Below are positions 12,641 to 29,040 of a DNA stretch of 64,000 nt, piece by piece. The position numbers and the translations under genes are program-made. The stretch is from an uncultured Planctomycetia bacterium (lineage in GTDB: Bacteria > Omnitrophota > Gorgyraeia > Duberdicusellales > 4484-171), in the NCBI GenBank assembly GCA_964635565.1, contig CAZWON010000002.1, positions 14,936 to 78,935 of the forward strand, written 5' to 3'. The number at the start of each line of letters is the position of its first letter. Positions within the stretch are counted from its first letter, which is position 1. The notes under the pieces were generated by a model, which did not search any database, had not been told where the DNA came from, and saw only the letters and a list, made by a program, of their open reading frames with translations.

Positions 12641-12690
12641 AAAAAGCCGAGCTACCAAATTAAGCTTCGGCAGCCCGGCTATCCTGCTTT
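12641..12690 (-). terminator. Rho-independent terminator-like hairpin on the minus strand, about 200 nt upstream of the giant ORF start.
   Basis: Minus-strand AGCCGGGCT-(18-nt loop)-AGCTCGGCT followed by T8. 9-bp stem with one G-U pair. Confidence 0.5.
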
Positions 12691-13315: not shown

Positions 13316-13756
13316 TTATTCTTTCCATTCCATTCTAATAAGTTTTCTTTTACCATTAGGATAATTAACTATTGTTAATAATAAAACTTTATTATTAAGA
13401 TAATCAGTAGCCACTACTGTTATACCTTTGTTAACAGAAAATATCCGCCAGTTGGTAAATTTATTCCATTTTCCTCCTCCCTGACGGAAACTAAAGGCAA
13501 AACTTTCTATAAATCTCTTTACATATTCCTCTTTTTGCTGCATAGTCCTCAGTCTGTTAACTGTTCCCCCTACATTTATTCCCACTGCTACAAAAGAAGT
13601 CCAATCAATCAATCGCCCCACAGAAAAATCTCCTTTAATTAATCCCTTTAAACAACGGCGAGCAAAATCCACATCATTTCTTATCCCCGTGCATCCACTT
13701 ATAATAAATACAAAAACAAAAAATAAAGTAAACATATTTTTGGGTTTAATCTTCAT
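13316..13756 (-). CDS. Small lipoprotein of unknown function (146 aa).
   Basis: MKIKPKNMFTLFFVFVFIISGC gives a signal peptide with a lipobox Cys. Last gene of the Tad-like cluster. Confidence 0.55.
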   Translation of the reverse strand: MKIKPKNMFTLFFVFVFIISGCTGIRNDVDFARRCLKGLIKGDFSVGRLIDWTSFVAVGINVGGTVNRLRTMQQKEEYVKRFIESFAFSFRQGGGKWNKFTNWRIFSVNKGITVVATDYLNNKVLLLTIVNYPNGKRKLIRMEWKE

Positions 13757-13811: not shown

Positions 13812-16415
13812 TTAATGATCAGACCTACGGACAGATTTAATTCCTACTTTATCGTAACTATAATACACATAACACTCCTTAGTAATCTCACCAGCAATCC
13901 GTGGATTCCATATACCTAAAATGCCCACCTTTTTATTGGTAGAGTCGGGGTCTTTGCGAGTAACTTTAATCCAGGTTCTCTCTCCATTGTCCTTATAATC
14001 CTTCATTATAAGACAAATTTTTTTAACCAAAAAACACCCACTTTCTTTTTTTTCCAGACGAGCAAGTTTAAAAGGCCCGACTTCTACAGTTATGGAATGA
14101 TTCTCTAAAGTCCCTCCTCGTTTATCCTGCCAGGAATAAGTTATACTGCCTCCCCCGTCTTCCGCTCTCTCCGTGGTCTCTATAACATGAATTTGGTTAT
14201 AAAATTCCTCTATCTCGGAAAGGAAATCACTTATTTCTTTCTGTCTGCTCTCAAGAGAATCCAATACAGGCCTAAACTCATCATCCCATCTAATATCAAT
14301 GGTAGCAAACTCATCATCAACACTATTTAATTTTTCTTCCATCTCATCTAATACTCCTAAAAATGCCTCTTCGCCCATAGAAGGTATCTGCAAATCAGGT
14401 GTAGAAAGCTGTTCAACTCCTTGTTTATCCCCTTCATAAGTATTATCTTCGCAGATAGTATTACAATTTCCTTCGTCATCACATTCCTCATGGCAGCACC
14501 TGCAGGTATATCTATAATGAAAGTTGTAAGAAATCGTACCTCTTCCTTCTCCTAAATTTCTCCTCTCGCAAGGAGAATGAATATTGCCCTTTAAGGAAAT
14601 CTTTAAACTCTCAATTTCTACCTCGCCAACTAAAGAACAATTATCTTGTGAGCACACATCAAAGAACTCTCCTTCTCTAATACGATCTTTAAGACTCCTT
14701 ACAAATTCTCTTACTATACCTATCTCATCTGTTAACTTATTTTTATCATCAGCATAAAGCTTACACACAGGATTAGGAAGAATTACCCCTGATACTTCTC
14801 GTGAATCTTGTGTCCAATTACAGGGGTAAATAGGCTCATCAGGAGGATTATAATTATTACAGGAGGGTTCATCTTTTATACTTTCTTTAACTGAGCAAGG
14901 TGTGATTATGTATTCCAACTGACAAGGAGTAAGATTATTGCGAATATCAATGGTTTCCTCTATCCATTCACCCATTGCAGAAACAATAGACTCTAAATCA
15001 TTATAAAAATCGTTCCCCCTGCCAGGATTATATAAATAATCTACCCAGTCATAATTTTTGTCTAAATCCCCGACGTTGTGTTTTAATATTCCCTCGGCAT
15101 AATCAATAAATTCCTCCAGATGGTAACGTGCTCCATCTACATCATCATAGCCGGAAGGCACAGGACAACTCTCGCAATCTTTCTTATACCACCCTACAAG
15201 AGATGCCTTGTCAGGTCCTGGCTCCCAGAAGCTAACCTCATAATTGCAATCTTCCAATGCCCGCCACAACTCTATAGGAGGAGCATCACAAGATACACAA
15301 TCACATTCCACCTCTTTTCTATCCATCTCTGAGAGAAATTCTTCAATATTCTGTTTAAAAGGCCTGAGAGAATTATTTACAAAATTATTTATAACATCTA
15401 CTCCTGAAATTAAACTTTCTTTTAAATCTTTTATGTGCTTATCCCACCATACTAAAAATGCAGGAACTTTGTCATCTGTCTTCCCATCACAATCTATATC
15501 AGTGGTATCGGTAACCTTATTAGGATCATCCACTGTTTTTGAAAGAACCTGAAGAAATACGCCTTCTCTAATACGCTCATAGTCAGGAAGGCCATTAAGT
15601 GCTTTGACAAAATTTTCCATACCCGCTGCAAGGCTCTTATCCATCATAAGGCCAGTATAAATACTTGCCCCCACAGCAAGAGAGCCGCCAATAATAGCAC
15701 CTGTTGTAGAAGCAAAAGCAGTAACAACAGAACCCTGCAGTAAGGTTCCTCCTTCTAACACCCATCCCGATATTGCCTTCCCTGCCTCAAAAACCATTAA
15801 TCCACCTGTAGAACTACCAGCAGCACCCCCTCCTACCTCAAATGTTGCTCCTCCTGCGCCTGCTACTGATTGTGTTCCTCCCAAGAGACTTGCCCCTCCA
15901 GCAATTGCTGCTCCAATCATCGCTCCTTGAATTGCCCCCATCGCCATTCCTTTAAGAGGGTTATTAGCAGTAAAAGATCCTCCTATTGCCCCTCCTATTG
16001 CCCCTCCTATTACTGCAGCAAGACCAGGGCCACCAATAACAAACCCTATTATTGCTCCAATAATAGCAAGAACTACTCCTAAAAGCCCCCCTTTCTTGCA
16101 TTTCTTTGTTTTGTTGCCTAACGATTCATACAACATATGACTTTTAGATGCCAACTGAGAACCTAAATAAAGACCTGCTGAATCTATAGCATTAGAAATT
16201 TGTGTTAACCTGTTTGTGACATTTCCAATATTTATCACCACAAGAGTAAAAATTAATACAAAAATAATCATTAAAATAAAAAGAGTGGCTATTTGACCTC
16301 TTTTATATATACTTTTTACAGTTTCAAATATATAATTATTTTTTTTCTTCTGGGTAGAAATTTTAAGTCTGGTTAAGTTCTTTAAAGAAATTATCTTGCC
16401 TAAACCAGAAAACAT
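13812..16415 (-). CDS. TadG-like pseudopilin / minor pilin (867 aa) with a Gly-zipper segment and a large Cys-rich acidic C-terminal domain. Putative pilus-associated adhesin.
   Basis: N-terminus QIATLFILMIIFVLIFTLVVINIGNVTNRL resembles the TadE/G N-terminal motif (PF13400-like). GGAIGGAIGG-type glycine zipper, then about 600 aa rich in Cys, Asp and Glu. Sits in a Tad gene neighbourhood. Confidence 0.5.
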   Translation of the reverse strand: MFSGLGKIISLKNLTRLKISTQKKKNNYIFETVKSIYKRGQIATLFILMIIFVLIFTLVVINIGNVTNRLTQISNAIDSAGLYLGSQLASKSHMLYESLGNKTKKCKKGGLLGVVLAIIGAIIGFVIGGPGLAAVIGGAIGGAIGGSFTANNPLKGMAMGAIQGAMIGAAIAGGASLLGGTQSVAGAGGATFEVGGGAAGSSTGGLMVFEAGKAISGWVLEGGTLLQGSVVTAFASTTGAIIGGSLAVGASIYTGLMMDKSLAAGMENFVKALNGLPDYERIREGVFLQVLSKTVDDPNKVTDTTDIDCDGKTDDKVPAFLVWWDKHIKDLKESLISGVDVINNFVNNSLRPFKQNIEEFLSEMDRKEVECDCVSCDAPPIELWRALEDCNYEVSFWEPGPDKASLVGWYKKDCESCPVPSGYDDVDGARYHLEEFIDYAEGILKHNVGDLDKNYDWVDYLYNPGRGNDFYNDLESIVSAMGEWIEETIDIRNNLTPCQLEYIITPCSVKESIKDEPSCNNYNPPDEPIYPCNWTQDSREVSGVILPNPVCKLYADDKNKLTDEIGIVREFVRSLKDRIREGEFFDVCSQDNCSLVGEVEIESLKISLKGNIHSPCERRNLGEGRGTISYNFHYRYTCRCCHEECDDEGNCNTICEDNTYEGDKQGVEQLSTPDLQIPSMGEEAFLGVLDEMEEKLNSVDDEFATIDIRWDDEFRPVLDSLESRQKEISDFLSEIEEFYNQIHVIETTERAEDGGGSITYSWQDKRGGTLENHSITVEVGPFKLARLEKKESGCFLVKKICLIMKDYKDNGERTWIKVTRKDPDSTNKKVGILGIWNPRIAGEITKECYVYYSYDKVGIKSVRRSDH

Positions 16416-16459
16416 TTTCTTCTCCTTAAATTTTACACCCCTTTATTCTTCTCATTTTA

Positions 16460-16714
16460 TTACTTAAAAACATCTAAATCAGGATACTCCGATTCATCAA
16501 CAAACACAGGCTTATCACTATGTTGGGTATCTTCTGATGCAGCATCGCGACGGGTATCATTATAATCTTTTTCTCTCTGAACCATCTGATTATTCATCCA
16601 CACAAATATATTGACTGCTCCTACCATTAGTATTACTACAACTGCTAAACTTACGGTAAGCTCTAATATAACCTGAGTTTTTTTAATAACTTGTCTGCCA
16701 CTCATTAGAATCAT
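16460..16714 (-). CDS. Small TadE-like pseudopilin (84 aa).
   Basis: RBS GGGAGGA before ATG (MILMSGRQVIKKTQVILELTVSLAVVVILMVGAV). Shares the KKxQ...E class-III-like prepeptide with the Flp array. The N-terminal part of the track ORF 16460..16936 overlaps the upstream gene and is rejected. Confidence 0.5.
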   Translation of the reverse strand: MILMSGRQVIKKTQVILELTVSLAVVVILMVGAVNIFVWMNNQMVQREKDYNDTRRDAASEDTQHSDKPVFVDESEYPDLDVFK

Positions 16715-17702
16715 TCCTCCCTTTAATGGTAGAAATGCTTTTAGAAGTATAACTACCTGATTCATCTCCATAAGGATGGTAAATAACCTCCCGGGTTGTA
16801 GTAAATGACCAATTAAAATCATCTTTTGAGATAATTTTTCCTTGCGGCTGTTGGTTAACTGTAAGGGTATCGTTTCTTTCTTTAACTTGAGCAATCTCGG
16901 GCTGGATTCCCATCGCTTTGGGCTTAATCTGCTCACCCCCTATAATACCGCCGAGATTAGCAAAAGCAAATAGCTCTTCCAGCTTATCACAATACCAGGG
17001 AGTATTTATAGATACCGCACACACTTCTTCACAGCTAAACTCGTAAGCACCTCCCTCTTCTCCGCTCCACCTGCCTTCTTCACACTGCTGGGCGCATACA
17101 TCCTTATCTGTAATCATTCTGCAAATTCTTACTGCTGAGCCGTAATCTATACTTTCTCCTGAATAGGGGTCTATTATGGTTACAACCCCTGAATCTTCAT
17201 CCCACTTAATATTTGAACCTCCATATATCTCTTTATATTTTTCTACTATCTTTTTTACTTCCTCATCCCCGCTACTACCCACATTTTCCTCTCTAATTGC
17301 AGCAAGATAAAATGTCTCTTTTCTACTATCATTTCCCTGAAACTCCATTGTTATTCTGGGTAGCTCTTCTTTGGTATCAGCAGTTTTATCTATACGATAA
17401 TTACGAACTACAATTGCACTACCGCTAAAACCTTCAGCGCTTCCCACCCCAAAAGGGTCGGAAGGGCTGGGAATATGCTTATCTCTTACAAGAAAATATG
17501 TTGCCTCGCGCATATCACGAGAGGCAGATGCCAAAGCTTTCCTAAAAGCATGCTGGCTTGTTCTCTGCTGAAAGTTATACTTGAGTCCGTAACTTACAAG
17601 AACACCTAAAATAAACAAAAAAACTCCTCCAAAAATGGCAGTTTCCACTAATGATTGTGCCTTTTTTCTGCTGGTATTATATTGCTCTATAATATTCATC
17701 AT
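16683..17702 (-). CDS. TadE/TadF-like pseudopilin (339 aa) with a Cys-rich C-terminal domain.
   Basis: N-terminus SRKKAQSLVETAIFGGVFLFILGVLV carries the same KKAQS motif as the pilins. The C-terminal region has many Cys (CAQQCEEGRW...SCEEVCAV...WYCDK). Confidence 0.5.
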   Translation of the reverse strand: MMNIIEQYNTSRKKAQSLVETAIFGGVFLFILGVLVSYGLKYNFQQRTSQHAFRKALASASRDMREATYFLVRDKHIPSPSDPFGVGSAEGFSGSAIVVRNYRIDKTADTKEELPRITMEFQGNDSRKETFYLAAIREENVGSSGDEEVKKIVEKYKEIYGGSNIKWDEDSGVVTIIDPYSGESIDYGSAVRICRMITDKDVCAQQCEEGRWSGEEGGAYEFSCEEVCAVSINTPWYCDKLEELFAFANLGGIIGGEQIKPKAMGIQPEIAQVKERNDTLTVNQQPQGKIISKDDFNWSFTTTREVIYHPYGDESGSYTSKSISTIKGRNDSNEWQTSY

Positions 17703-17707
17703 TCATA

Positions 17708-18559: not shown

Positions 18560-18569
18560 AGCCTCCCCC

Positions 18570-19448: not shown

Positions 19449-19637
19449 TTAAGGCTGGTATTGACGACCATAACCAAACACATCAACTGAGGCTTTCCAC
19501 TTCCCGCAAATTGCTTTTTTCAAATAACCCTGCACCATAATTAGTGCTAACACTATAGTTAGGATAAATACCCCATACTCTATAAGAGAAACTGCTCTTT
19601 TATTTTGTAATTGTCTGGTCTCTAATTTGTGTAACAT
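19449..19637 (-). CDS. flp: Flp-family pilin paralog (62 aa).
   Basis: NKRAVSLIEYGVFILTIVLALIMV has a hydrophobic core after the conserved EY. Member of the tandem array. Confidence 0.6.
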   Translation of the reverse strand: MLHKLETRQLQNKRAVSLIEYGVFILTIVLALIMVQGYLKKAICGKWKASVDVFGYGRQYQP

Positions 19638-19917
19638 CTTCCTCTATATTCTCGACAGTTACTAACCCTAAATAATTCTCTCCATTTATGGTGACATTAT
19701 CTATATAACTATTCGTTGTACTATAAGAAGTTACGCTATAAGTAGAAATTGAATTTATCCCTTCTGTATCATACAACATCCCTAAGGAGTCTGATTGTGT
19801 TTTAACTCTTCCTGAATAAGCTCTTTTTAAATAAATACTCATCAGAACCAAACTGGCAGATATCACAGCAACCATCACACTATACTCCAATAATGTCTGG
19901 CTTCTTTTAATCTTCAT
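19600..19917 (-). CDS. flp: Flp-like pilin paralog with C-terminal extension (105 aa).
   Basis: MKIKRSQTLLEYSVMVAVISASLVLM. Confidence 0.55.
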   Translation of the reverse strand: MKIKRSQTLLEYSVMVAVISASLVLMSIYLKRAYSGRVKTQSDSLGMLYDTEGINSISTYSVTSYSTTNSYIDNVTINGENYLGLVTVENIEEDVTQIRDQTITK

Positions 19918-20239
19918 GCTCTATTTCTCCTTGCCAGGATGAAGAAGTTGCTTCTATAGAGACCTTGCTCTCTGAATCTATCATATGGGCGGTTGCGTTT
20001 TCCTCTATGGTTTTATTTTCATTGCTCTCAGTTGTTGTCTGGGAACCTAAGCTGAAACTTTTTTTAGGATTGAACTCTATAGAATACTGTTTTCCCTCGC
20101 TCATTTGATCAGCCTGATATTTCACTACAGACTGAATACTTCTCTTTATATAAGTCTGCATACTAATTACTGCTGCTGTAAGAACACTTACTAAAATTAC
20201 ATATTCACCAATAGACTGTGTTTTTAGCTTTACTCCCAT
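19907..20239 (-). CDS. flp: Flp-like pilin paralog with C-terminal extension (110 aa).
   Basis: MGVKLKTQSIGEYVILVSVLTAAVISM. Confidence 0.55.
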   Translation of the reverse strand: MGVKLKTQSIGEYVILVSVLTAAVISMQTYIKRSIQSVVKYQADQMSEGKQYSIEFNPKKSFSLGSQTTTESNENKTIEENATAHMIDSESKVSIEATSSSWQGEIEHED

Positions 20240-20706
20240 AAATTTTCTTGTTTTAAACTCACTCCTGAAAAACTGTCTGTATAGCTTGTTTTTGTATACT
20301 CGTCTTCCAATAGCTCATCTTTAACTTCTCCATTAAACTGAAAAGTCCTTCTTGTATGAGAAAAAGAATGGGTTGATTTTACAAGATTACTATGTGAAGG
20401 AGAAAACTGAATTCCTAAAGCATTAGCATCTTTCATTAATCTTCCTTGATTGGCTGTTTTTATATAGACAAAAGAAATCACCATAGAAACCCCAATTAAA
20501 GCAATCAATACCCCATATTCAATTATAGCCATAGCTTTTCCAGATTCTTTTCTTTTTTTTGTATAGCCAAAAGAAGATATGTGTGTGCTGTAATTATTAA
20601 TAATTTTTCTAATACCCTTGTTCAATTTTAATCTCCCTCTCTCTGAATTTCTTAGAAATATCTTCTCAGAACCTAAAATAGCTTTTAGTCTAGAAAGCAT
20701 TACCAC
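20230..20706 (-). CDS. flp: Flp-like pilin paralog with C-terminal extension. Start uncertain: possibly a TTG after RBS AGGGAG, giving about 133 aa.
   Basis: KKRKESGKAMAIIEYGVLIALIGVSMVISF motif. The track ORF starts further upstream. Confidence 0.45.
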   Translation of the reverse strand: MVMLSRLKAILGSEKIFLRNSERGRLKLNKGIRKIINNYSTHISSFGYTKKRKESGKAMAIIEYGVLIALIGVSMVISFVYIKTANQGRLMKDANALGIQFSPSHSNLVKSTHSFSHTRRTFQFNGEVKDELLEDEYTKTSYTDSFSGVSLKQENLWE

Positions 20707-20709
20707 CTT

Positions 20710-21033
20710 CTAATTCCACCCATCATCCTGAGTTGAATCTATTCCTGTTATCCTCTGGCCCCTCGTAGTTGTATTAGTAGAAAATGTATGTTGTATATCC
20801 GAAGCGCTATGACTTTCCTTACTTTCCTGATAAGTTTCTGTCTCTATATTCTCAAAGATATAATATGGGGTATACTGGCGAGGCACCCCTGCTATCTCTG
20901 TTACAAAATCACTTGCTCCTTTTAATCTTGCCTGATAACCCCTTTTAATAAAAGTCTGCATAGCGATAAAAGCACTTATCACTACTCCTACTAAAAGGGC
21001 ATATTCAGTTATGCTCTGTGCTTTCTTATTCAT
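20710..21033 (-). CDS. flp: Flp-like pilin paralog with C-terminal extension (107 aa).
   Basis: RBS GGAG, then ATG MNKKAQSITEYALLVGVVISAFIAM. The track used an upstream TTG. Confidence 0.55.
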   Translation of the reverse strand: MNKKAQSITEYALLVGVVISAFIAMQTFIKRGYQARLKGASDFVTEIAGVPRQYTPYYIFENIETETYQESKESHSASDIQHTFSTNTTTRGQRITGIDSTQDDGWN

Positions 21034-21035
21034 TA

Positions 21036-21197
21036 TCAATGGTCTCCAATAATATGTGATATTTTATCTCCCAAGGCATTATAGTAAGTATCAAGCCCAT
21101 TTTTAATAGAGCCCTTAAATCCTATTATCAAAGCCAAAATAATAGCAGTAACCATCAAAAGATACTCTACTGTAGCCTGACAACTTTTACTACACAT
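21036..21197 (-). CDS. flp: Flp pilin (53 aa), missing from the ORF track because it is under 60 aa.
   Basis: RBS GGAG. MCSKSCQATVEYLLMVTAIILALIIGFKGSIKNGLDTYYNALGDKISHIIGDH read by hand from the reverse complement. Confidence 0.55.
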   Translation of the reverse strand: MCSKSCQATVEYLLMVTAIILALIIGFKGSIKNGLDTYYNALGDKISHIIGDH

Positions 21198-21199
21198 AC

Positions 21200-21574
21200 T
21201 TACTCACTCCAAATATCAGATTCATTACCTTTAAGGTTGTAATTGATTCCCCAGTCTTTCTTACTGACCTGCCCTCCCTTATAATTGAGATCTATCTCGC
21301 TCTCTAAGCCTAATCCGCTATCAACCAATTGTGATTCTGACCAGTATCCACTACCAATAGCATCACTTGACCCTGTGGTTTCATTTGAACTGGCCTGATC
21401 CCAGCTATTGCTCGTATAGTTTGCTCCAAAATGTTCAGTGCTTATGCTATCTGCGGAACTCTTAAATCTACCACTAATAGCTTGTTTCACGTATCTCTGT
21501 GCTATTATTACAGCAGCAAGAAAGACAGCAATTAACACTGCATATTCTGTCATACTTTGTGCCTTTTTTCTCAT
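21200..21574 (-). CDS. flp: Flp-like pilin paralog with C-terminal extension (124 aa).
   Basis: RBS GGAGGTGAG, then ATG MRKKAQSMTEYAVLIAVFLAAVIIA. The track ORF is extended 5' to 21703. Confidence 0.55.
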   Translation of the reverse strand: MRKKAQSMTEYAVLIAVFLAAVIIAQRYVKQAISGRFKSSADSISTEHFGANYTSNSWDQASSNETTGSSDAIGSGYWSESQLVDSGLGLESEIDLNYKGGQVSKKDWGINYNLKGNESDIWSE

Positions 21575-21608
21575 TCTCTCACCTCCGCTCTGTATTTCTT
21601 CTATTACA

Positions 21609-22007
21609 TTACCTCTCTTCTTCCCATAAGTTATCAGCGGTATCACGAAGCGCATGCTGTTTAGAAAATCCCCCACTTCCTCTTCCACTAATCTCACTGC
21701 CACTGATATTAGCTACATAATCATTATTTACGTTGATATCGGTTTTACTGGCCTGTTGAGTTTGATATTGTGATTCTAAATAGTAAGGTTCGTACTGCTT
21801 TATGCTCTTAAACTCTGCTGTTACGTCTGTCATATTTTCAGCTGTCATTGTAAAAGACGGCTGAGTCAAAGCATTTACTCCTGCAGCTGTTCGAGCCTGT
21901 AAACCACGTTTGATATATACCTGCATTGCCACTGCCGCAGAAATAACCACACCCAGAATAATTGCATATTCCGCTGTTGATTGAGCTTTTTTTATCCTTA
22001 TTAACAT
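21609..22007 (-). CDS. flp: Flp-like pilin paralog with C-terminal extension (132 aa).
   Basis: MLIRIKKAQSTAEYAIILGVVISAAVAM. Confidence 0.55.
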   Translation of the reverse strand: MLIRIKKAQSTAEYAIILGVVISAAVAMQVYIKRGLQARTAAGVNALTQPSFTMTAENMTDVTAEFKSIKQYEPYYLESQYQTQQASKTDINVNNDYVANISGSEISGRGSGGFSKQHALRDTADNLWEEER

Positions 22008-22032
22008 ATTACCCCCCTTTTTTTATGGAATA

Positions 22033-22230
22033 CTACTCCTCACTTAACCCCATTTTACTGCTTATCTCAGTAGAAGCTTTGTCAATAATCTGTCCTGCAG
22101 TATCTGCCATCTTCTCTGCTTTAGGCTTAATAACACTCTTGGCAGCATAAATAAATGCTAATATCAATGCGGCAGCAAGTAAAGTATATTCCACAGTAGA
22201 TTGGCCGTTTTTCTTTAACTTCATAAACAT
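22033..22230 (-). CDS. flp: Flp pilin (65 aa).
   Basis: RBS AAGGAGG with a 5-nt spacer, then ATG MFMKLKKNGQSTVEYTLLAAALILAFIYA. G at -5 relative to the EY Glu matches the G/XXXXEY TadV site. Confidence 0.6.
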   Translation of the reverse strand: MFMKLKKNGQSTVEYTLLAAALILAFIYAAKSVIKPKAEKMADTAGQIIDKASTEISSKMGLSEE

Positions 22231-22249
22231 AAAACTACCTCCTTTTATT

Positions 22250-22414
22250 TTAAGATGCTTCACTTTCTGCTTCTATATTAATCTGATCCTCAATAAGCTT
22301 AAGATTTGCCTGCGTCGCTCTCTGGACATAAACACTCATTGCCACAATAGCTGCAGCTACAACACTTACTAACATTATATACTCAACAATACTCTGAGAA
22401 GCTCTTTTCACCAT
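22250..22414 (-). CDS. flp: Flp pilin (54 aa), missing from the ORF track.
   Basis: RBS GGGGG. MVKRASQSIVEYIMLVSVVAAAIVAMSVYVQRATQANLKLIEDQINIEAESEAS. Confidence 0.6.
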   Translation of the reverse strand: MVKRASQSIVEYIMLVSVVAAAIVAMSVYVQRATQANLKLIEDQINIEAESEAS

Positions 22415-22415
22415 C

Positions 22416-22595
22416 CTACTTTACCCCCATCTCTTCCATCTTTCTAACAAAGAAATCTTCGCTTTCTTCTTTTACTCTCTGGATAGCATTATTAAAACCC
22501 AAAACCGTTAAAATAATAATCAAAGCAAACGCTAAGAAATATTCAACTACTGCTTGAGCTTTTCTTTTCCTTTGAATATTTTTATCTGACCTCAT
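22416..22595 (-). CDS. flp: Flp pilin (59 aa), first gene of the array, missing from the ORF track.
   Basis: MRSDKNIQRKRKAQAVVEYFLAFALIIILTVLGFNNAIQRVKEESEDFFVRKMEEMGVK. An AT-rich 770-bp promoter region lies upstream. Confidence 0.6.
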   Translation of the reverse strand: MRSDKNIQRKRKAQAVVEYFLAFALIIILTVLGFNNAIQRVKEESEDFFVRKMEEMGVK

Positions 22596-23370: not shown

Positions 23371-25539
23371 TTAGGTATGAGGAGAAAAAATATCAGAAGA
23401 GAGTTTAATGTCTCGCGAGACAATCTCATCATAGAATGTGGGAATATAACCGGTTGGAGAAAAATCGCCAACAATCTCACCGCCAGGAGCAACACCTTTT
23501 TGTTTAAAAACAAATATATCTTTTAAGTTGGGTCTGCCATTGGGTGTTAATCCTGCGAGTTCAGTAATCTGAATAACTTTTCGTGAACCATCGGATAAAC
23601 GAGCGGTGTGGACAATTAAATCTATGGCAGAGGCAATTGTTTCTTCAATTGCTCTTAAAGGTAACTCTATGCCACTCATAAGAACCATATTATCTAATCG
23701 GATAATAACTTCATGGGTAGAATTAGCATGGATAGTTGATAATGAACCATCGTGCCCTGTATTCATTGCCTGAAGCATATCTAAAACTTCTTTACCCCGA
23801 CACTCCCCAACAATTATTCTATCCGGGCGCATACGTAATGCATTTCTGAATAACTCCCTTATAGTAACTTCTCCTTTACCTTCTATATTAGGAGACCGTG
23901 CCTCTAATCGAATCCAATGGGTTTGAGACAACTTAAGTTCTGCGGTATCCTCAATAGTTATAATGCGCTCGTTAACAGGTATATAGGTAGAGAGAATATT
24001 TAAAAGGGTTGTTTTGCCAGAACCAGTTCCTCCTGAGATTAAAATATTCTTCCGGGCCATAACTACTGCTTCTAAAAATTCCCCCATTTGTGGTGTAAGA
24101 GACTTAAATCTGTTAATCAATTCTTCCATTCCTAATCTTTTGTAAGGAAATTTTCGAATAGTAAGGGTAGGTCCACTTAAAGATAAAGGAGGGATTATGG
24201 CATTCACCCTCGAACCATCAGGAAGACGTGCATCTACATAAGGAGAAAATTCATCAATCCGTCTTCCCAAAGGAGCAAGGATTCTATCAATAATTAACTT
24301 CACTTGTTCATTTGAGATAAACCGTTTGCTGGTAAGTTCGATTTTACCATTTTTCTCAATAAAGACTTGGTCCATATTGTTTACCATTATTTCAGTGATA
24401 TTGGGATCGCGTATCAAATCCTCCAAAGGACCCAACCCTAAAGCTTCATCAACAATCTCTTGAACCAATTTTCTTCTTATCTCCAAAGAAGAAATGAAGC
24501 TTTGAGTTTCTTCTATTAAAATATTATTTACGACTCTTTCTGCTGTTTCTCTTAATTCCTTAGACTTATCTGTATCTAACATTAAAACTTCTACAGGCAT
24601 CCTCTTCAGGTCCATTCGCTCAATTAATTTCCGGTGAACTTTTTCTTTTAAGGTTATAATTGGGTCTTCCTCTCTTGTCTTAACTTGAAGAGGCTCCACT
24701 AATCCCAGATTAACTAATAAACTACTTCCTCCATCAATTACCTCTGCGGGTCTCTTTCTAAGCTTAAGTTCAGACAGCTCTTTTGTAGGAAGATAAATAT
24801 CCTCTCTTTCTAAAAGCTCATCTGCTAATTTCTTTATAGCTAAAGTTACACTACTACGGGAATTATCTAAAACTACAGGAATACCTTTATTTAAAGCAAC
24901 TCCTACAGATTTTCCTTCCGAAGGAATCTGAGAAAAAATCTCTACAGGAAAAACCATCTTTACTTCTCCTACATCCACTCCTCCTCTACTCTCTGCCCTA
25001 TTAAGAATAATTTTTAACATTTTTAAAGGAAAATATAAACTCTGTAAAGTATCCAATATCCACTCAGTATGATAAACGGAAAGGATATCAGGAGTTACTA
25101 TAAGAAATATCAAATTAGAATTATTAAAAATTTTCACCAAATTATCGCTTAGACTTCTACCGCCGTCTATAATAATAAAGTCATAATCCAATTTTTGAAA
25201 TAAGGTTAAGAATTCTTCAATATGTTGGGGTTTAATATGATGAATTAATCTTAAGGAAGATGCTGCTGACAAAAAATCAAGAGAAGAATTTAAAGAAGTA
25301 AAGAAACTTTTTACATCTTTCTTGCCTCCCATAATTTCTTTAGTGTGAGCAATTAAATCTATCAGGGTCCTTTGAGGCTTTATATTAGCCATTTTCACCA
25401 TATCTAAGGGGGCATTCAGGTCTAACGATATAAGTAGAATTTTTTTCTTCTGTAAAGAAAGGCTAACCGCAACATTAAGAGTAACCATGGTTGTACCCAC
25501 GCCACCTTTTGTGCTAAAAAATACAACTGTCTTTGTCAT
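23371..25539 (-). CDS. Fused TadZ/CpaE-like (MinD/ParA-family, degenerate Walker A) and TadA/CpaF secretion ATPase (722 aa).
   Basis: N-terminus VVFFSTKGGVGTTMVTLNVAVSL is ParA/MinD-like. The C-terminal half has a T2SSE-type P-loop ILISGGTGSGKTTLLN plus Asp/His boxes. Confidence 0.7.
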   Translation of the reverse strand: MTKTVVFFSTKGGVGTTMVTLNVAVSLSLQKKKILLISLDLNAPLDMVKMANIKPQRTLIDLIAHTKEIMGGKKDVKSFFTSLNSSLDFLSAASSLRLIHHIKPQHIEEFLTLFQKLDYDFIIIDGGRSLSDNLVKIFNNSNLIFLIVTPDILSVYHTEWILDTLQSLYFPLKMLKIILNRAESRGGVDVGEVKMVFPVEIFSQIPSEGKSVGVALNKGIPVVLDNSRSSVTLAIKKLADELLEREDIYLPTKELSELKLRKRPAEVIDGGSSLLVNLGLVEPLQVKTREEDPIITLKEKVHRKLIERMDLKRMPVEVLMLDTDKSKELRETAERVVNNILIEETQSFISSLEIRRKLVQEIVDEALGLGPLEDLIRDPNITEIMVNNMDQVFIEKNGKIELTSKRFISNEQVKLIIDRILAPLGRRIDEFSPYVDARLPDGSRVNAIIPPLSLSGPTLTIRKFPYKRLGMEELINRFKSLTPQMGEFLEAVVMARKNILISGGTGSGKTTLLNILSTYIPVNERIITIEDTAELKLSQTHWIRLEARSPNIEGKGEVTIRELFRNALRMRPDRIIVGECRGKEVLDMLQAMNTGHDGSLSTIHANSTHEVIIRLDNMVLMSGIELPLRAIEETIASAIDLIVHTARLSDGSRKVIQITELAGLTPNGRPNLKDIFVFKQKGVAPGGEIVGDFSPTGYIPTFYDEIVSRDIKLSSDIFSPHT

Positions 25540-25543
25540 AAAT

Positions 25544-27160
25544 TCATCTTTCTGCTCTATACACTATGGGGACTTCAATATTTACCTCTTCCAAACGCAT
25601 CTGGGGAGAAAAAGGAGGGTAAGATAATTTTCTTACTACTTTTAATGCTTCTTCGTCAAATATCTTATAGCCTGAAGAACGAACAATACTTACATCTTTA
25701 AGTTCTCCTGCGGATGATAGTCTTAAAGATAAAACCAAATTCCCTTCCCACCCTGTATGTCGTAACACGCGAGGATAAGAAATATTACTTAAAATTCTTC
25801 TCTGAACCTGATAAGCATACTCTTTAAACTCATCCGGAATATTAGTCTGGCCGTACAATTTAAATATCCCCCTTTTTGTGGAAAATTCTTCCTGCAAAAA
25901 ATCATCTTCTTTGTCCGCTTTGCTTTCCATATTAATAATATGAGGAGTTAAAGTAATAAAAAGTTCAGTATTTCCCCTTTGACCTGCACCCCCTCCTATA
26001 CTTATGGATCTGTGTCTGAAAAAAGCTCCTAATACAGGAAGGTCTGCTAACCAGGGAAATCTTTTTAAATCCTCATCTGTCTTTTCCTTTATAAGTCCTC
26101 CTATAGAAAGAGTTGCTTTATCTCTTAAAGAAACCTCTGTAGAGATTATCCTCTTTGTTAAAGGATATGCTTTAGCTGTAGGAGCATCAGGATCCCCTAT
26201 AGTTTCTACCGGTTGTAATTCGCTTACTTCTATATCCAATTTAATATCCACCTTATCTCTATTGACTACTTTGGGTTCAATATTTAACTTTATTCCATAT
26301 TCTTTATATTCAATATTAGTACCCTCTCCTTCAGAAGAAACTTCTGTAGCAAAAATGGGAACTTCTCCTCCTATAAGAAGGCTAGCGGTTTTACCGCTTC
26401 TACACACCAATCGGGGACGAGACAAAATTCTTGCCTCGCCTTTCTGAATTAATAAATCTAATGTGAAGCTAAAAGCAGAGCGTGTCCAGTCAGAAACGTG
26501 AAGTAATGCTGAAAGACCTGTTACTGCCTGGACAGTTGGCCCGCTTGACTCTGTAAACTTAATAGCACTGGGCATATCAAACCCTAAGGTTCTAACGGCA
26601 TCTTTGCTTAATTCTAACACCTGCACTTCAATCTCTACACTTGATTCTTCTTCCCGCACATTAATAAAATCTAAAACTTTATCTTTAAGTTTCCCTAATG
26701 CTGCCATAAGTCTATTTTTCTCTTCTTCTGTTTTTACTTCTCCTTTTAGCAAAACCTTATTCTCGCTGTCTAAGGCTTTGGTATAAATATTTAAAAACCC
26801 TATATTTTTTAAAAGATTATCAATTCTTTTCTTAATCAATGCCATATTCTCCTTATATACTTTAACTTCTATACTGTGGTGCCCAAATTTATCCCACCAG
26901 TTAAAAGAAGTTTCTCCTTCGGTTTTACCTACAATAGTTATATCTTTTTCTGTAACATTAACCACATCTATTACCTCAGGATTACCAATAGCAATACGCT
27001 GGGGGCTGTTTACAGAAATTACTTTCTGTTCATTTACATATAAAACAAGAGTTGTTTCATCGCTACTAAATAAATCCTGGAAATTTTGAGAAAAAAGAAA
27101 TGAACTGTTTCCTAAAAATATTACACAAAAAAGAATAATCTTTAAATATGTTTTTTTCAT
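25544..27160 (-). CDS. cpaC: CpaC/RcpA-type secretin with a C-terminal TonB_C-like domain (538 aa).
   Basis: Signal peptide. QRIAIGNPEVIDVV is a pilus-formation N-terminal motif. Secretin core LLIQKGEARILSRPRLV...FPWLADLPVLGAFF. C-terminus YPRVLRHTGWEGNLVLSLRLSSAGELKDVSIVRSSGYKIFDEEALKVVRKLSYPPF matches the TonB C-terminal fold. Confidence 0.65.
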   Translation of the reverse strand: MKKTYLKIILFCVIFLGNSSFLFSQNFQDLFSSDETTLVLYVNEQKVISVNSPQRIAIGNPEVIDVVNVTEKDITIVGKTEGETSFNWWDKFGHHSIEVKVYKENMALIKKRIDNLLKNIGFLNIYTKALDSENKVLLKGEVKTEEEKNRLMAALGKLKDKVLDFINVREEESSVEIEVQVLELSKDAVRTLGFDMPSAIKFTESSGPTVQAVTGLSALLHVSDWTRSAFSFTLDLLIQKGEARILSRPRLVCRSGKTASLLIGGEVPIFATEVSSEGEGTNIEYKEYGIKLNIEPKVVNRDKVDIKLDIEVSELQPVETIGDPDAPTAKAYPLTKRIISTEVSLRDKATLSIGGLIKEKTDEDLKRFPWLADLPVLGAFFRHRSISIGGGAGQRGNTELFITLTPHIINMESKADKEDDFLQEEFSTKRGIFKLYGQTNIPDEFKEYAYQVQRRILSNISYPRVLRHTGWEGNLVLSLRLSSAGELKDVSIVRSSGYKIFDEEALKVVRKLSYPPFSPQMRLEEVNIEVPIVYRAER

Positions 27161-28104
27161 TCAGAAATAGATATATATTCTTTATTTAGTCCCCGGTAAA
27201 TCTCTATCTTTTTAGGCTCAAGCTTTTTAGGCTCAAGGGGTTTTACCTCTACCTGGGGCAAAGTAGAATTTATATACTGAAAAAGAGTATCCCATCCTGC
27301 AGGAGGAAGAGGTTTTACTTTTGCATCGGCAGGAGAACGTAAAACCAGACGAATTCTTCCCTGTTCAACAACAAAAGACAATAAACTTGCCTCTTGAGGA
27401 GAAAGTGCCAAGGTAATCAAAGGATTTTTTTCTTCTTTTGTACTTCTTTGTTTTAACCGCAAACTCCATAAACCAGTCTTTCCTTTTTCTTTTTTTTCTA
27501 ATAACTTTTCTCCTACAGCTAAAACTAAAACTTTCTGAAAAAGGGGTATAGTAGTATTAGTAGTCTTAGTCCCTTCAGGAGTTTTAACAGGTAAAGGTAA
27601 AAGAGCAATAACATCAACATAGTCTCCTGGTTTAATCATTCCTACCAAACCACTTATATTATCCACACTAACCGTAATTGCTCTTTTACCTACAGGTGTT
27701 GCCATTGCCAAAGATTCCCCCCTTGCCATCGTGGGAGACATCAGTTTACTTAAAGTAATCTGTTCTCCCTTGTTTATAGCAACAACTGTTTTCATACCAA
27801 TTATTCTGTCTGCGGAAGTTACAGATTTAGGCTGGATATATTCATTAGGAATTACTTTCGTCTCAATCATACTCTGTACAATTTCTGCTCCGGCGGGTAT
27901 ATCTTTTTTAGCGACAATCACTGAGTTTAAATTTTTATATCTTTCCATAAATGTCTTCTTTAAATTATTATACATTTTATTCCTTTCTTCTTTTATATAA
28001 GTATTTATAAGAATAATTGCGCCTATACTTAAGATGATCCCTCCGCTTAAACTTAACATCTTTTTAGATATTCTTGGCCCCATTAAACCTCGCCTTTGTT
28101 TCAA
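27157..28104 (-). CDS. cpaB: CpaB/RcpC-like Flp pilus assembly protein (SAF domain).
   Basis: N-terminal TM segment, VIVAKKDIPAGAEIVQSMIE SAF-like, GMIKPGDYVDVIAL. Confidence 0.6.
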   Translation of the reverse strand: MKQRRGLMGPRISKKMLSLSGGIILSIGAIILINTYIKEERNKMYNNLKKTFMERYKNLNSVIVAKKDIPAGAEIVQSMIETKVIPNEYIQPKSVTSADRIIGMKTVVAINKGEQITLSKLMSPTMARGESLAMATPVGKRAITVSVDNISGLVGMIKPGDYVDVIALLPLPVKTPEGTKTTNTTIPLFQKVLVLAVGEKLLEKKEKGKTGLWSLRLKQRSTKEEKNPLITLALSPQEASLLSFVVEQGRIRLVLRSPADAKVKPLPPAGWDTLFQYINSTLPQVEVKPLEPKKLEPKKIEIYRGLNKEYISISE

Positions 28105-28125
28105 AAAGGAATATGTTAAGATATA

Positions 28126-29040
28126 TTACTGAATCTTATCTTCCATTATCTCTATTTTAGCATTTCTTGATAAATTACCCACAAGGTCATCTATTCTTTT
28201 CTGCTGTTTTATAAATGTCAAACCTCTCTTTATATCATCCCACATCTCGGAGAGAGTTTTTTGTTTTCCTCCTTTTTTACCCTCTACAGTAATAATATAA
28301 TACCCATCTGGCCCTTTAAATACACTGCTTATCCCCCCTACACTCAAAGCATCGGAAAAAGCTATCTCATCAAATTCTTTAAATTTTGTGCCTGGCTTAA
28401 TGAAGCCTAAATCCCCTCCTTTCTCAGCAGTAGGTGCCTTAGAGTACTGGCGGGCTAAAGAAGCAAAGTCCTCACCTTGCAATAACCTGATTAATAAATC
28501 TTTTGCTTGAGATTCACTAATAACTACTATTTCTCTTATCTTTCTTTCTTCTGGCTCTTTTAAATTTTCTTTAGCAACATTGTAATAATCCTTAATTTCT
28601 TGAGGAGTAACGTTTACTTTATCTGTTTCCTCCTTAACTAACTGGTAGACAAGCAGTTGCTGTTTAGTATTCTCCAATGCTTTTATCACCTCAGGATTCC
28701 TATCCAAACCTCTATCCAAGGCTTCTTGATAAAGAAGAATGCGCTTTATAACTTCATTTTTTAAATAATCTAATTTTTTTTCTCGTGTAGTTATTTTAAG
28801 CTCAGGTTTATCCTCAGGGACTGCATTATTATAACGGTCTATTTCCTCCTCTAAATCTTCTAAAGTAATGGGATAACCATTTACCTTAGCAATAACTGTT
28901 CCTGTAACAGGAAGTTTGGAAGTAAAGGGCTCTTTTTTGGACTCTGAGGCAGGTTTTTTACTGAATTTTAATTTATCACAGCTCACAAGAAAAAAACTAA
29001 TACAGACAATTAATCCTATTATAAAACTCCTCCCTTTCAT
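28126..29040 (-). CDS. Parvulin-type peptidyl-prolyl isomerase lipoprotein (PrsA/SurA-like).
   Basis: Lipobox LVSC. PPIC motif region QYSKAPTAEKGGDLGFIKPG. Confidence 0.6.
   Translation of the reverse strand: MKGRSFIIGLIVCISFFLVSCDKLKFSKKPASESKKEPFTSKLPVTGTVIAKVNGYPITLEDLEEEIDRYNNAVPEDKPELKITTREKKLDYLKNEVIKRILLYQEALDRGLDRNPEVIKALENTKQQLLVYQLVKEETDKVNVTPQEIKDYYNVAKENLKEPEERKIREIVVISESQAKDLLIRLLQGEDFASLARQYSKAPTAEKGGDLGFIKPGTKFKEFDEIAFSDALSVGGISSVFKGPDGYYIITVEGKKGGKQKTLSEMWDDIKRGLTFIKQQKRIDDLVGNLSRNAKIEIMEDKIQ

Follow-up and report, generated by a model that had tools for sequence, protein, structure and literature searches.

GspK, which lacks a Glu at position +5 and binds Ca2+, is the largest subunit of the type II secretion system (T2SS) pseudopilus tip, a three-subunit structure that it caps. 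In the Kil predation pilus of Myxococcus xanthus, KilL, KilM and KilN, homologues of TadE, TadF and TadG, are described as assembling into a heterotrimeric tip; KilN, a large pilin, is built of long helices and a beta scaffold and lacks a homologue in PDB, predicted tips in other bacteria have TadG as their backbone, and the Tip proteins are not detectable by sequence outside myxobacteria (PMC12075869). Caulobacter CpaJ, CpaK and CpaL make up a TadE/F/G-type tip complex in which CpaL is the Tad tip protein (PMC13170226), and TadG and CpaL have been proposed to prime assembly and then to occupy the tip of the pilus (PMC13170226, PMC12075869). An earlier description of the locus examined here calls it T2SS-like and has it precede a giant protein that is a candidate for secretion (10.1101/2023.11.21.568195).

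Here we analysed a 64,000-nucleotide stretch of DNA (the window) from a Candidatus Omnitrophota genome, in which neighbouring genes encode proteins of 339, 84 and 867 aa. We propose, with a probability of about 0.6, that these three proteins are Tad (type IVc) minor pilins, functional counterparts of TadE/TadF/TadG, CpaJ/CpaK/CpaL and KilL/KilM/KilN, that would form a priming and tip complex.

A four-gene module in a Tad/Flp pilus locus

The original prediction had named two large pseudopilin genes, and both open reading frames (ORFs), of 867 and 339 aa, proved real (Table 1), metagenome gene callers having called them independently. They lie inside a complete Tad/Flp pilus locus, with a PPIase, RcpC, a secretin, TadZ–TadA, a Flp array, TadB and TadC. 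Immediately downstream of this locus is a giant gene that encodes at least 9,152 aa; a c-di-GMP riboswitch controls this giant gene beside the proposed minor-pilin module. One Flp-type pilin of the array matched Pfam Flp_Fap weakly, and neither the window nor four related loci yielded a prepilin peptidase (Peptidase_A24). A third pilin-like gene, of 84 aa, had been overlooked: it shares 32 nt with the 3′ end of the 339-aa ORF and was called by metagenome gene callers as 84 or 81 aa. The gene order TadB–TadC–339–84–867 parallels tadE–tadF–tadG.

The order 339/84/867/146, which includes a fourth gene for a 146-aa protein that matches nothing in Pfam or NCBIfam, is kept in four other Omnitrophota loci (L001–L004), each time with TadB/TadC and a giant or large C39-peptidase protein as neighbours. 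In L001 an 82-aa homologue of the 84-aa protein, with Glu+5, occupies the same position (E 3e-11) and a 150-aa homologue of the 146-aa protein directly follows the TadG-like gene (E 3e-22). The ORFs at the corresponding positions in L002, L003 and L004 encode 85, 86 and 112 aa for the former and 153, 156 and 147 aa for the latter. A co-encoded trio of medium, very short and very large pilin-like proteins in a predatory or host-dependent organism also recalls the Kil system, as do several extra small Flp genes that could act as adapters (PMC12075869); each locus here, however, has one module, whereas Kil has four paralogous ones.

Table 1 Features of the locus, with nucleotide positions in the window
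Feature	Position	Strand	Basis or detail
146-aa predicted lipoprotein, fourth module gene	13316..13756	(-)	Lipobox ISGC
867-aa TadG-class large minor pilin-like protein	13812..16415	(-)	ORF; Pfam Tad; homologues
aa 681-867, conserved long helix and C-terminal beta domain	13815..14375	(-)	pLDDT mostly above 90
aa 500-680, Cys-rich insertion	14376..14918	(-)	7.2% Cys; long-form clade only
aa 259-499, conserved helical head part	14919..15641	(-)	VDDPNK motif; pLDDT mostly above 90
DxDxDG calcium-type loop, D306-I-D308-C-D310-G311	15474-15500	(-)	
aa 179-258, Gly/Ala/Ser/Thr-rich linker	15642..15881	(-)	Predicted disordered; variable length
aa 109-178, second hydrophobic segment and two Gly-zipper helices with AIGGAIGG	15882..16091	(-)	GxxxG; conservation
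aa 41-98, alpha-1 helix	16122..16295	(-)	Starts QIATL; AF2 helix; conservation
aa 1-40, basic N-terminal leader or cytoplasmic tail	16296..16415	(-)	SLxNL motif; ends Gly40
84-aa candidate minor pilin, TadF/KilM-like, shortest of three	16460..16714	(-)	ATG at 16714 after GGGAGG
339-aa candidate minor pilin, TadE/KilL-like position	16683..17702	(-)	ORF; conserved Q16, E20
TadC platform protein	17708-18559	(-)	Pfam T2SSF; TadC and TadB E 9e-15 and 1.5e-15
TadB platform protein	18570-19439	(-)	Pfam T2SSF; TadC and TadB E 9e-15 and 1.5e-15
Array of about 11 small Flp-type pilin genes	19449..22595	(-)	Motif [AG]↓Q-S/T-x-x-E-Y
TadZ–TadA fusion ATPase, CpaC secretin with TonB_C domain, RcpC/CpaB, PPIase	23371..29040	(-)	Pfam matches

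Pilin-type N-termini and the membrane-proximal part of the 867-aa protein

The 339-aa, 84-aa and 867-aa proteins and the Flp pilins share an N-terminal signature, in which a small residue is followed by Gln, then by Glu or Leu at +5, and then by a hydrophobic helix. In a six-frame translation of the window, [GAST]-Q-x3-[E/L] with at least 14 hydrophobic residues occurred 11 times, against 0.04 expected from shuffles, and all 11 occurrences fall between 16298 and 22559 of the minus strand, within the Tad locus. The 84-aa protein carries the motif KKT↓QVILEL, with Glu at +5, and an acidic tail.

A pseudopilin N-terminus had been claimed for both large proteins, and it stood most clearly for the 339-aa protein, which has a predicted leader (aa 1–15), the cleavage motif KKA↓QSLVET and a hydrophobic helix at about aa 16–42. 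Q16 (Gln+1) and E20 (Glu+5) are invariant in 10 homologues, which also conserve C207, C224, C228 and C238. Pfam TadE was undetected in this protein and matched only one of 10 relatives (E 0.033); none of the 42 clusters of the family, two of which have an Omnitrophica or Omnitrophota source name, carries a Pfam domain. The AlphaFold2 (AF2) model is poor (pLDDT 52.8) and places strands after a 60-residue N-terminal helix.

For the 867-aa protein the claim is plausible. At its junction, RG↓QIATL, Gly-1 (G40) and Gln+1 (Q41) are nearly invariant, as are A43 and T44, and Glu+5 is absent across the family. Pfam Tad (PF13400) matched 19 of 23 relatives, and aa 40–82 of the protein itself scored 22.0 bits, just under the cut-off of 22.3. 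The protein is TadG-class: among its 69 homologues, those from Omnitrophica metagenome-assembled genomes are named Tad domain-containing or TadG-related, and the family comprises 309 representatives (50% identity) at E ≤ 1e-30. Like Caulobacter CpaL and the TadG proteins of Aggregatibacter and Pseudomonas, it has an N-terminal Tad hydrophobic helix, comes from the final gene, also the largest, in a set of three pilin-like genes of a tad locus, and ends in a modular C-terminal domain. It differs from them in lacking a vWA domain, as anticipated in the original prediction and found for all 23 members examined (the protein and 22 relatives), and in following alpha-1 with an extra membrane-grade segment, Gly-zipper helices and a disordered linker of 80 residues.

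The first 40 residues contain 10 Lys/Arg, and S10 and L11 are conserved across the family alignments; a conserved SLxNL is unusual for a discarded leader and counts against the minor-pilin model. AF2 predicts a single 69-residue helix over aa 30–98 (pLDDT 80–96), of which aa 42–60 are membrane-grade (apparent insertion energy -6.0 kcal/mol), followed by a short strand at aa 104–109 whose only possible partner is the C-terminal beta domain. An invariant Cys106 (CKKGG), within a KKCKK cluster, stands just ahead of the second hydrophobic segment (aa 109–127, -2.0 kcal/mol). Each of the 14 relatives examined has this segment at membrane grade; by insertion energy the Gly-zipper helices are not membrane-grade. 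The linker, at pLDDT below 50 over aa 177–258, varies strongly in length and sequence among homologues.

Because of the leader with SLxNL, the second membrane-grade segment and the disordered linker, the 867-aa protein could instead be an uncleaved polytopic component of the inner-membrane machine, with the 339-aa and 84-aa proteins still minor pilins. We regard this as unlikely but not negligible. With the Tad-type helix, the second segment and the Gly-zipper helices as its anchors, it would hold a periplasmic head on a tether; this head would serve as a scaffold or gate for assembly, or would link the Tad machine to the giant protein, the pilus then acting as a type II secretion-like piston. 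Two conserved membrane-grade segments, the N-terminal tail motif, the zipper helices and the linker all fit such a role, and with the second segment, the zipper helices and the linker, moving the protein out of the membrane into a filament would be costly. Aggregatibacter TadG is reportedly membrane-associated and has not been shown to be processed by TadV, which also favours it. So does the constant adjacency of the module to a giant or large C39-peptidase protein, and West-Roberts et al. interpret this conserved locus as a giant-gene-associated secretion system (10.1101/2023.11.21.568195). Gly-1 and Gln+1 are, however, conserved exactly as in the locus pilins, a missing Glu+5 is what the GspK precedent leads one to expect of a tip-capping subunit, published models assign TadG, CpaL and KilN to the tip of the pilus (PMC12075869, PMC13170226), and no homology of the 867-aa protein to the giant protein is left after composition correction.

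The head domain and the glycine zipper

The AF2 model of the 867-aa protein (mean pLDDT 78.7, pTM 0.68) is mostly above 90 in the head, and Foldseek found no match for the head in PDB or BFVD. In this model the head is a confidently predicted domain unlike any solved structure; that sets it apart from TadG and CpaL and makes it resemble KilN, which by its description also pairs long helices with a beta scaffold and lacks a solved homologue, although a Gly zipper and linker are absent from descriptions of KilN. R283, E284, D296, D297, P298, D303, D306, D308, D310, G311 and W324 are invariant in the family, and Y760, W762, D764, H773, C801, R820, D822 and P823 are conserved in the C-terminal part.

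Cys-rich acidic domains had been ascribed to both large proteins. The description suits the 867-aa protein, whose residues 259–867 have 3.9% Cys, 20.2% Asp+Glu and a pI of 4.5 against averages of 0.87% Cys and 12.1% Asp+Glu in 33 other window ORFs, and does not suit the 339-aa protein, which is mildly enriched at 1.8% Cys (six Cys, aa 194–238) and 14.7% Asp+Glu. Most Cys of the 867-aa protein fall in the insertion at about aa 500–680, present in roughly one-fifth of the family; the columns holding C519–C616 are gaps in 78–88% of the 69 homologues. AF2 models the insertion as long beta-strands of 15–21 residues (500–514, 593–609, 625–645 and 651–671, all at pLDDT above 90), and in the family a conserved C498 stands on one side of it and a column-679 Cys on the other, the latter being Ser in the window protein. 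The family core is eight Cys: C106 and seven widespread head positions (C414, C417, C498, C638, C655, column 679 and C801). Cys totals are even in 36 of the 69 homologues, with no even-number bias.

The topology of the head depends on the number of membrane-spanning helices. Two spans (aa 42–60 and 109–127) with the basic N-terminus inside would leave the C-terminus inside, and KKCKK would satisfy the positive-inside rule if its loop were cytoplasmic; the protein might then be a membrane-anchored regulatory or redox protein whose CxC/CxxC clusters bind Zn or Fe. Sites such as C371-x-C373-xx-C376, C414-xx-C417 and C638-x-CC-xxx-C645 look metal-binding, and the absence of parity bias in Cys counts agrees, but we consider a cytoplasmic head very unlikely: most of these Cys are clade-specific, the protein matches no zinc-finger or metal-binding family, a DxDxDG loop with 20% acidic residues is typical of extracytoplasmic Ca2+-binding domains, and the genomic context is entirely pilus biogenesis. 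Cys106, on the periplasmic side of helix 1, completes the even core set of eight, which is compatible with a Cys106–head disulfide and would place the head outside the cytoplasm.

GxxxG repeats in the 867-aa protein are confirmed, with 16 motifs, 12 of them within aa 109–200, and AIGGAIGG at aa 139–146. The small-xxx-Gly-xxx-small spacing is about 1.7 s.d. above a shuffle of the same Gly/Ala-rich stretch; we take the zipper to be a real motif not from these spacing statistics but because its glycines are conserved, G138, G142, G145, G160, G164 and G168 being invariant or nearly so in the 69 homologues. Conserved GxxxG spacing and a Cys before the hairpin recall outer-membrane lipoproteins of the SlyB/Pcp type (Gly-zipper_Omp, Gly-zipper_YMGG, Rick_17kDa_Anti). 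However, aa 108–147 matched Gly-zipper_Omp (E 0.036) and Gly-zipper_YMGG (E 0.046) at sub-threshold scores, well short of the respective Pfam cut-offs (25 and 28.9 bits), no lipobox precedes Cys106, and the segment sits inside a pilin-like protein. AIGGAIGG had also been placed near the N-terminus of the giant ORF, as a hint at related or interacting proteins. The sequence is absent from that ORF, which has other Gly-rich hydrophobic stretches at about aa 320–480, and similarity to the zipper vanishes after composition correction (E 0.45), which removes the basis for that link. Least probable of all, the hairpin would be a membrane-active element at the pilus tip that inserts into a host or prey membrane to puncture it or to anchor the pilus, making the tip an effector: the conserved zipper spacing, the weak matches to membrane-embedded zipper families, the intrinsic prey-puncturing activity of a Myxococcus Tip complex (PMC12075869) and the predatory or parasitic lifestyle inferred for Omnitrophota with Tad loci (PMC10066038) speak for it, but the zipper adjoins alpha-1 at the base of the molecule and not the distal end of the head, and its helices are modelled at a pLDDT of only 52–75.

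A proposed priming and tip complex

In the minor-pilin reading that we prefer, the genes, their locus-restricted N-terminal signature, the Tad-family match, the four-gene synteny beside giant genes and the confident head model with no solved relative are observations, and we infer that the proteins are cleaved, form a trimer, reach the tip and bind a target. The missing TadE match and the unreliable model of the 339-aa protein, the missing Peptidase_A24, the sub-cut-off Tad score of the 867-aa protein and the absence of an even-number bias in the Cys totals of its family count against this reading. An adhesin role, suggested in the original prediction, is likewise something we infer, neither sequence nor fold having revealed an adhesin-type, carbohydrate-binding or other recognised binding domain.

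The N-terminal helix of each protein would insert it into the inner membrane, and a prepilin peptidase encoded elsewhere would cut all three ahead of the conserved Gln. Their alpha-1 helices would bundle on the TadB/TadC platform, and this three-helix complex would prime polymerisation of Flp pilins by the TadZ–TadA ATPase and finish at the distal pilus tip. The 867-aa subunit would be topmost because it is the sole one of the three without Glu+5, like GspK, with which it also shares being the largest subunit; no similarity to GspK was detected by sequence or fold, and unlike the GspK–GspI–GspJ system the machinery here is Tad-type, with TadZ–TadA, RcpC and Flp pilins. At the tip, the pilus would display the acidic, Cys-stabilised and probably Ca2+-binding head of the 867-aa protein, which may contact a host or prey cell.

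Gene order of the Tad locus and its terminal module

Both large ORFs of the original prediction lie on the minus strand where it had placed them (coordinates in the table). They belong to a complete Tad/Flp pilus locus and occupy its distal end. Read 5' to 3' on that strand, the locus encodes a PPIase, RcpC/CpaB, a CpaC-type secretin with a TonB_C domain, a TadZ-TadA fusion ATPase, about 11 Flp-type pilins, TadB, TadC, the 339-, 84- and 867-residue pilin-like proteins and a 146-residue predicted lipoprotein; about 800 nt of intergenic sequence then precede a giant ORF. Nearly all genes of the window are on the minus strand, a bias likewise indicated by its strongly negative GC skew. Plus-strand ORFs within the 867-codon gene (15120-16082) were dismissed because they are short, oppose a conserved gene and lie in a region of strong negative GC skew.

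Features of the Tad locus and its surroundings (nucleotide positions of the window unless a locus or residues are named)
Feature	Position	Strand	Remarks
Giant ORF	2-12505	-	runs off the window; more than 4,168 aa within it
Intrinsic-terminator hairpin	12680-12645	-	strong; directly after the aptamer; 15 bp, T7 tail
c-di-GMP-I riboswitch aptamer (RF01051)	12666-12837	-	giant-gene leader; 52.3 bits, gathering score 35
Riboswitch, L001	9069-9174
Riboswitch, L002	15001-15098
Riboswitch, L003	14791-14918
Predicted lipoprotein, 146 aa	13316-13756	-	lipobox ISGC; always directly after the TadG-like gene
TadG-like protein, 867 aa	13812-16415	-
Pilin-like protein, 84 aa	16460-16714	-	ribosome-binding site GGGAGG; 32-nt overlap with the end of the 339-aa ORF
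Pilin-like protein, 339 aa	16683-17702	-
Flp-type pilin array	19449-22595	-	about 11 small genes (53-167 aa); unusually large
TadZ (ParA/MinD-type)-TadA (T2SSE ATPase) fusion, 722 aa	23371-25539	-
Tad secretin (Secretin, T2SS-T3SS_pil_N)	25544-27160	-	C-terminal TonB_C, 64.8 bits
FIST-domain protein, histidine kinase, response regulator with GGDEF diguanylate cyclase	32026-35583	+
867-aa protein, basic segment	aa 1-40		conserved SLxNL motif
867-aa protein, long helix	aa 30-98		single modelled helix; aa 42-60 strongly membrane-grade, -6.0 kcal/mol (Hessa scale)
867-aa protein, strand	aa 104-109		short, modelled; invariant Cys106 (CKKGG)
867-aa protein, second membrane-grade segment	aa 109-127		conserved in 14 of 14 relatives examined
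867-aa protein, Gly-zipper helices	aa 132-178		two; too weakly hydrophobic to insert alone
867-aa protein, linker	aa 179-258		variable, Gly/Ala/Ser/Thr; predicted disordered
867-aa protein, helical region	aa 259-499		conserved; pLDDT mostly >90; VDDPNK and DxDxDG loop
867-aa protein, insertion	aa 500-680		Cys-rich (7.2%); modelled very long beta-strands; in about one-fifth of the family
867-aa protein, C-terminal region	aa 681-867		conserved long helix and beta domain

In the order TadB-TadC-339-84-867 the gene for the largest protein follows two smaller pilin-like genes of the tad locus (tadE and tadF), an arrangement typical of the TadG family. The 84-residue gene, overlooked in the original prediction, was also called independently by metagenome gene finders, and its position is conserved in four other Omnitrophota loci (L001 to L004), including an 82-residue homologue in L001 (E 3e-11). 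All four have the same order, a 339-like protein (235-528 aa), a protein of 82-112 aa, a TadG-like protein and one of about 150 aa, and in each the module adjoins TadB/TadC and a giant or large protein. The 146-residue protein matched no family; its L001 homologue (E 3e-22) lacks the lipobox cysteine, so the lipid anchor is not conserved.

Elsewhere in the locus, the secretin-TonB_C fusion is unusual and recurs in L002, as does the TadZ-TadA fusion (719 aa there). Two genes of the Flp array, at about 22250-22595, are tiny (59 and 54 aa) and fall short of the length threshold used for listing ORFs; beyond the array about 775 nt (22596-23370) carry no called gene. Some of its small pilins may be adapter pilins like KilK/KilO. 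A scan of ORFs from the window and from L001 to L004 found no prepilin peptidase gene (Peptidase_A24, TadV/CpaA).

Pilin-like N-termini and the 867-residue family

The original prediction of prepilin-type N-termini was largely on the right track. All Flp-type genes of the locus carry [AG]/Q-[ST]-x-x-E-Y (slash, predicted cleavage site) followed by a hydrophobic helix. A broader form of this signature that also covers the three larger proteins, [GAST]-Q-x3-[E/L] and then at least 14 hydrophobic residues, occurs 11 times in the window, always within 16298-22559 of the minus strand, against 0.04 occurrences expected by chance (regular expression, six frames). The 339-residue protein begins KKA/QSLVET, with Gln+1 and Glu+5 invariant in its family, and the 84-residue protein KKT/QVILEL; both have the features of class III signals, namely a short basic leader, a small residue at -1, Glu+5 and about 20 hydrophobic residues. 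The 867-residue protein (KRG/QIATL) has them only in part: Gly-1 and Gln+1 are nearly invariant, but it lacks Glu+5 and has a 40-residue leader. Pfam Tad (PF13400) aligned to its residues 40-82 with 22.0 bits against a gathering cut-off of 22.3 (E 2e-4), and matched 19 of 23 homologues (E <= 0.01; best 7e-8); many precomputed Tad hits are on record for the family as well. TadE (PF07811) had no match in the 339-residue protein at E <= 1 and matched one of its ten relatives (E 0.033). The vWA domain usual in TadG, to which the original prediction had seen no obvious homology, was indeed absent, with no VWA family detected in the 867-residue protein (E <= 1) or in 23 relatives (E <= 0.01). Profile-profile comparison gave no relationship between the 867- and 339-residue families. 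A low-confidence model of the 339-residue protein (pLDDT 52.8, from 10 sequences), with a helix of about 60 residues (3-63) and then strands, fits a pilin and proves nothing.

A profile search of 1.84 billion representatives recovered 309 clusters related to the 867-residue protein at E <= 1e-30 and 560 at E <= 1e-10. Homologues of both large proteins come from metagenomes, and those with names belong to Candidatus Omnitrophica/Omnitrophota MAGs, where they are called 'Tad domain-containing' or 'TadG-related' protein. Scanning GTDB genomes with the single 867-residue sequence found nothing, and with the family alignment (A4) only two loci, so the taxonomic spread of the family rests mainly on source names. 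NCBIfam held no match to the 867-residue protein.

From alignments and an AlphaFold2 model (mean pLDDT 78.7, pTM 0.68), we divided this protein into the segments listed in the table. The model passes from the long N-terminal helix (30-98) through strand 104-109 to a confident head, and as modelled that strand can pair only with the C-terminal sheet. The head is confidently predicted, with a modelled fold unlike any solved structure. It carries a loop, D306-I-D308-C-D310-G311, in which D306, D308, D310 and G311 are invariant in A4, D306 in 69 of 69 sequences. DxDxDG is a classical calcium-binding motif, and metal binding by this calcium-type loop is putative.

The Gly-zipper proposed for this protein is real, comprising 16 GxxxG motifs, 12 of them in residues 109-200, and AIGGAIGG at residues 139-146. 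Compared with a shuffle of this Gly/Ala-rich stretch, the excess in zipper spacing is only about 1.7 sd. Among 69 homologues, however, six zipper glycines vary little or not at all, and the motif is therefore under selection. Gly-zipper families (PF13488, PF13441 and PF13436) gave no match above gathering score. On residues 100-260, Gly-zipper_Omp reached 14.4 bits (cut-off 25) and Gly-zipper_YMGG 13.9 (cut-off 28.9), and such sub-threshold matches were all that Pfam returned at E <= 10 for four separate segments of the protein. Gly-zipper_OmpA matched one of 23 relatives (E 0.0046).

Cys-rich acidic domains had been proposed for both proteins, which holds for the 867-residue protein, whose C-terminal 609 residues contain 3.9% Cys and 20.2% Asp+Glu (pI 4.5) compared with averages of 0.87% and 12.1% in 33 other ORFs of the window. 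The 339-residue protein is only mildly enriched, with six cysteines, all in residues 194-238, and 14.7% Asp+Glu.

Eight cysteines are widespread in the 867-residue family, one near the membrane (C106) and seven in the head (C414, C417, C498, C638, C655, column 679 and C801). Co-occurrence, which is confounded by phylogeny, suggests the pairs 414-417 and 638-655. By elimination, a 498-679 pair would bracket the insertion and a 106-801 pair would link the head to the end of alpha-1; the latter fits the modelled strand 104-109 and would place the head in an oxidising, extracytoplasmic compartment. Of 69 homologues, 29 have an even number of cysteines in the head region and 36 an even total, a parity uninformative for disulfides, and without a bias to even counts across the family the disulfide argument is not strong. 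Column 679 is Cys in 96% of homologues and Ser in the window's protein, which has a Cys507 found in no other homologue; this residue may represent compensatory re-pairing with Cys498 (residues 498, 507 and 679; window about 14377-14924).

Giant neighbours and a c-di-GMP riboswitch

On its 169-kb source contig the giant ORF extends to at least 9,152 aa, apparently reaching the contig end. Its N-terminus comprises a membrane helix and Peptidase_C39 (24.9 bits, cut-off 22), and its first 750 or so residues are 30-33% identical to giant proteins of other loci. The neighbours of the module in those four loci measure 17,532 aa, 9,754 aa, more than 2,300 aa (open-ended) and 1,699 aa, the last (in L004) also having an N-terminal C39 peptidase domain. 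L003 (contig CAYHAI010000052.1) carries a full Omnitrophota-type module and a giant ORF; its deposition under the name 'uncultured Planctomycetales bacterium' probably reflects mislabelled taxonomy or a problem of binning.

The original prediction linked the giant protein to the 867-residue protein through a shared AIGGAIGG, which was mistaken: the exact motif is absent from the giant ORF. Homology between the two regions was also rejected, a BLASTP E of 2e-4 rising to 0.45 with composition correction. The giant protein has other Gly-rich hydrophobic segments at about residues 320-480, and giant proteins of other loci are homologous to it over an N-terminal region of about 750 residues that has Gly-rich stretches and no AIGGAIGG.

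The leader of the giant gene contains a c-di-GMP-I riboswitch aptamer followed by a terminator, and in three of the four other loci (L001 to L003) a riboswitch of the same class immediately precedes the giant gene. L004 has no such riboswitch, and the product of the corresponding gene there is only 1,699 aa long. A divergent set of FIST, kinase and GGDEF genes lies a few kb from the Tad locus, and may supply the c-di-GMP to which the riboswitch responds. The West-Roberts giant-gene preprint (10.1101/2023.11.21.568195) does not mention a riboswitch, and in the literature searched no paper combined Omnitrophota, a riboswitch and c-di-GMP in this sense. The riboswitch offers a regulatory handle on the giant genes.

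Proposed roles: tip complex or base scaffold

As in Tad pili, the trio consists of a medium, a very short and a very large pilin-like protein at the end of the tad locus. GspK, the capping subunit of type II secretion pseudopili, lacks Glu+5, and the 867-residue protein resembles it in being the only one of the trio without this residue. On the strength of this pattern and the GspK-like lack of Glu+5, we rate as the best explanation, at a probability of roughly 60%, that the 339-, 84- and 867-residue proteins form a TadE/TadF/TadG-type (KilL/M/N-like) minor-pilin priming and tip complex. KilL/M/N of Myxococcus, described as TadE/F/G homologues, are predicted to form a heterotrimeric tip through an alpha-1N helix bundle, prime pilus assembly and govern the recognition and killing of prey. 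The large pilin KilN combines long helices with a beta scaffold and lacks a homologue in the PDB; in other bacteria, similar tips have been predicted with TadG as their backbone (PMC12075869). Caulobacter CpaJ, CpaK and CpaL have been placed at the machine base before extension and at the tip afterwards (PMC13170226). The position of the 867-residue protein, its acidity and calcium-type loop and the presumed lifestyle together suggest that this candidate adhesin of the original prediction may contact a host or prey cell.

Three features of the 867-residue protein are unusual for one that has to leave the membrane and enter a filament: a conserved motif in a long N-terminal segment, a second membrane-grade helix behind five lysines, and zipper helices with a disordered linker. 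The main, though clearly less probable, rival is accordingly a scaffold that remains in the membrane at the base and might connect the giant protein with the Tad machine. The membrane-grade Gly-zipper insert raises the question of whether a pilin-like protein with extra membrane helices can leave the membrane at all. It is improbable that the TadG-like family constitutes a new class of Tad tip or base subunit whose conserved, membrane-grade zipper hairpin and tethered, novel-fold head couple the Tad machine to the adjacent giant surface protein or enter a host membrane. In that case the 'pilus' would serve specifically to deploy the giant proteins of host-dependent Omnitrophota or to puncture cells for them, with pilus and giant protein coordinated through c-di-GMP. 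The side of the membrane on which the head lies depends on how many of the helices cross it, and could even be the cytoplasmic one. A cytoplasmic metal-binding head is a minor rival to the tip complex, as is a membrane-inserting tip element.

Of this picture, the type of locus and the annotation as TadG-like were already public. Omnitrophota giant genes have been associated with a conserved 'type II secretion-like' locus (10.1101/2023.11.21.568195; recapitulated in 10.64898/2026.06.07.730766) that contains a Rotamase_2 PPIase, rcpC, gspD/E/F and numerous small genes with class III signal peptides. Tad complexes in Omnitrophota have been tied to a predatory or parasitic lifestyle (PMC10066038), and the searched passages of these three sources do not characterise the TadG-like protein or its partners. 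What is new is the definition of a conserved four-gene module, including the missed 84-residue pilin, together with the domain plan of a large TadG-like family, specific to Omnitrophota, in which a membrane insert with a Gly-zipper is combined with a head of no recognised fold.

Omnitrophota are ultra-small, uncultured and probably predatory or parasitic, and what their genomes suggest about attacks on other cells comes mainly from Tad loci and giant genes (PMC10066038; 10.1101/2023.11.21.568195). In Myxococcus, recognition and killing of prey are now known to depend decisively on the minor-pilin tip (PMC12075869). The equivalent Omnitrophota module of three pilin-like proteins and a conserved lipoprotein, which includes a family of at least 300 sequence clusters, provides concrete targets for structural and host-range studies.
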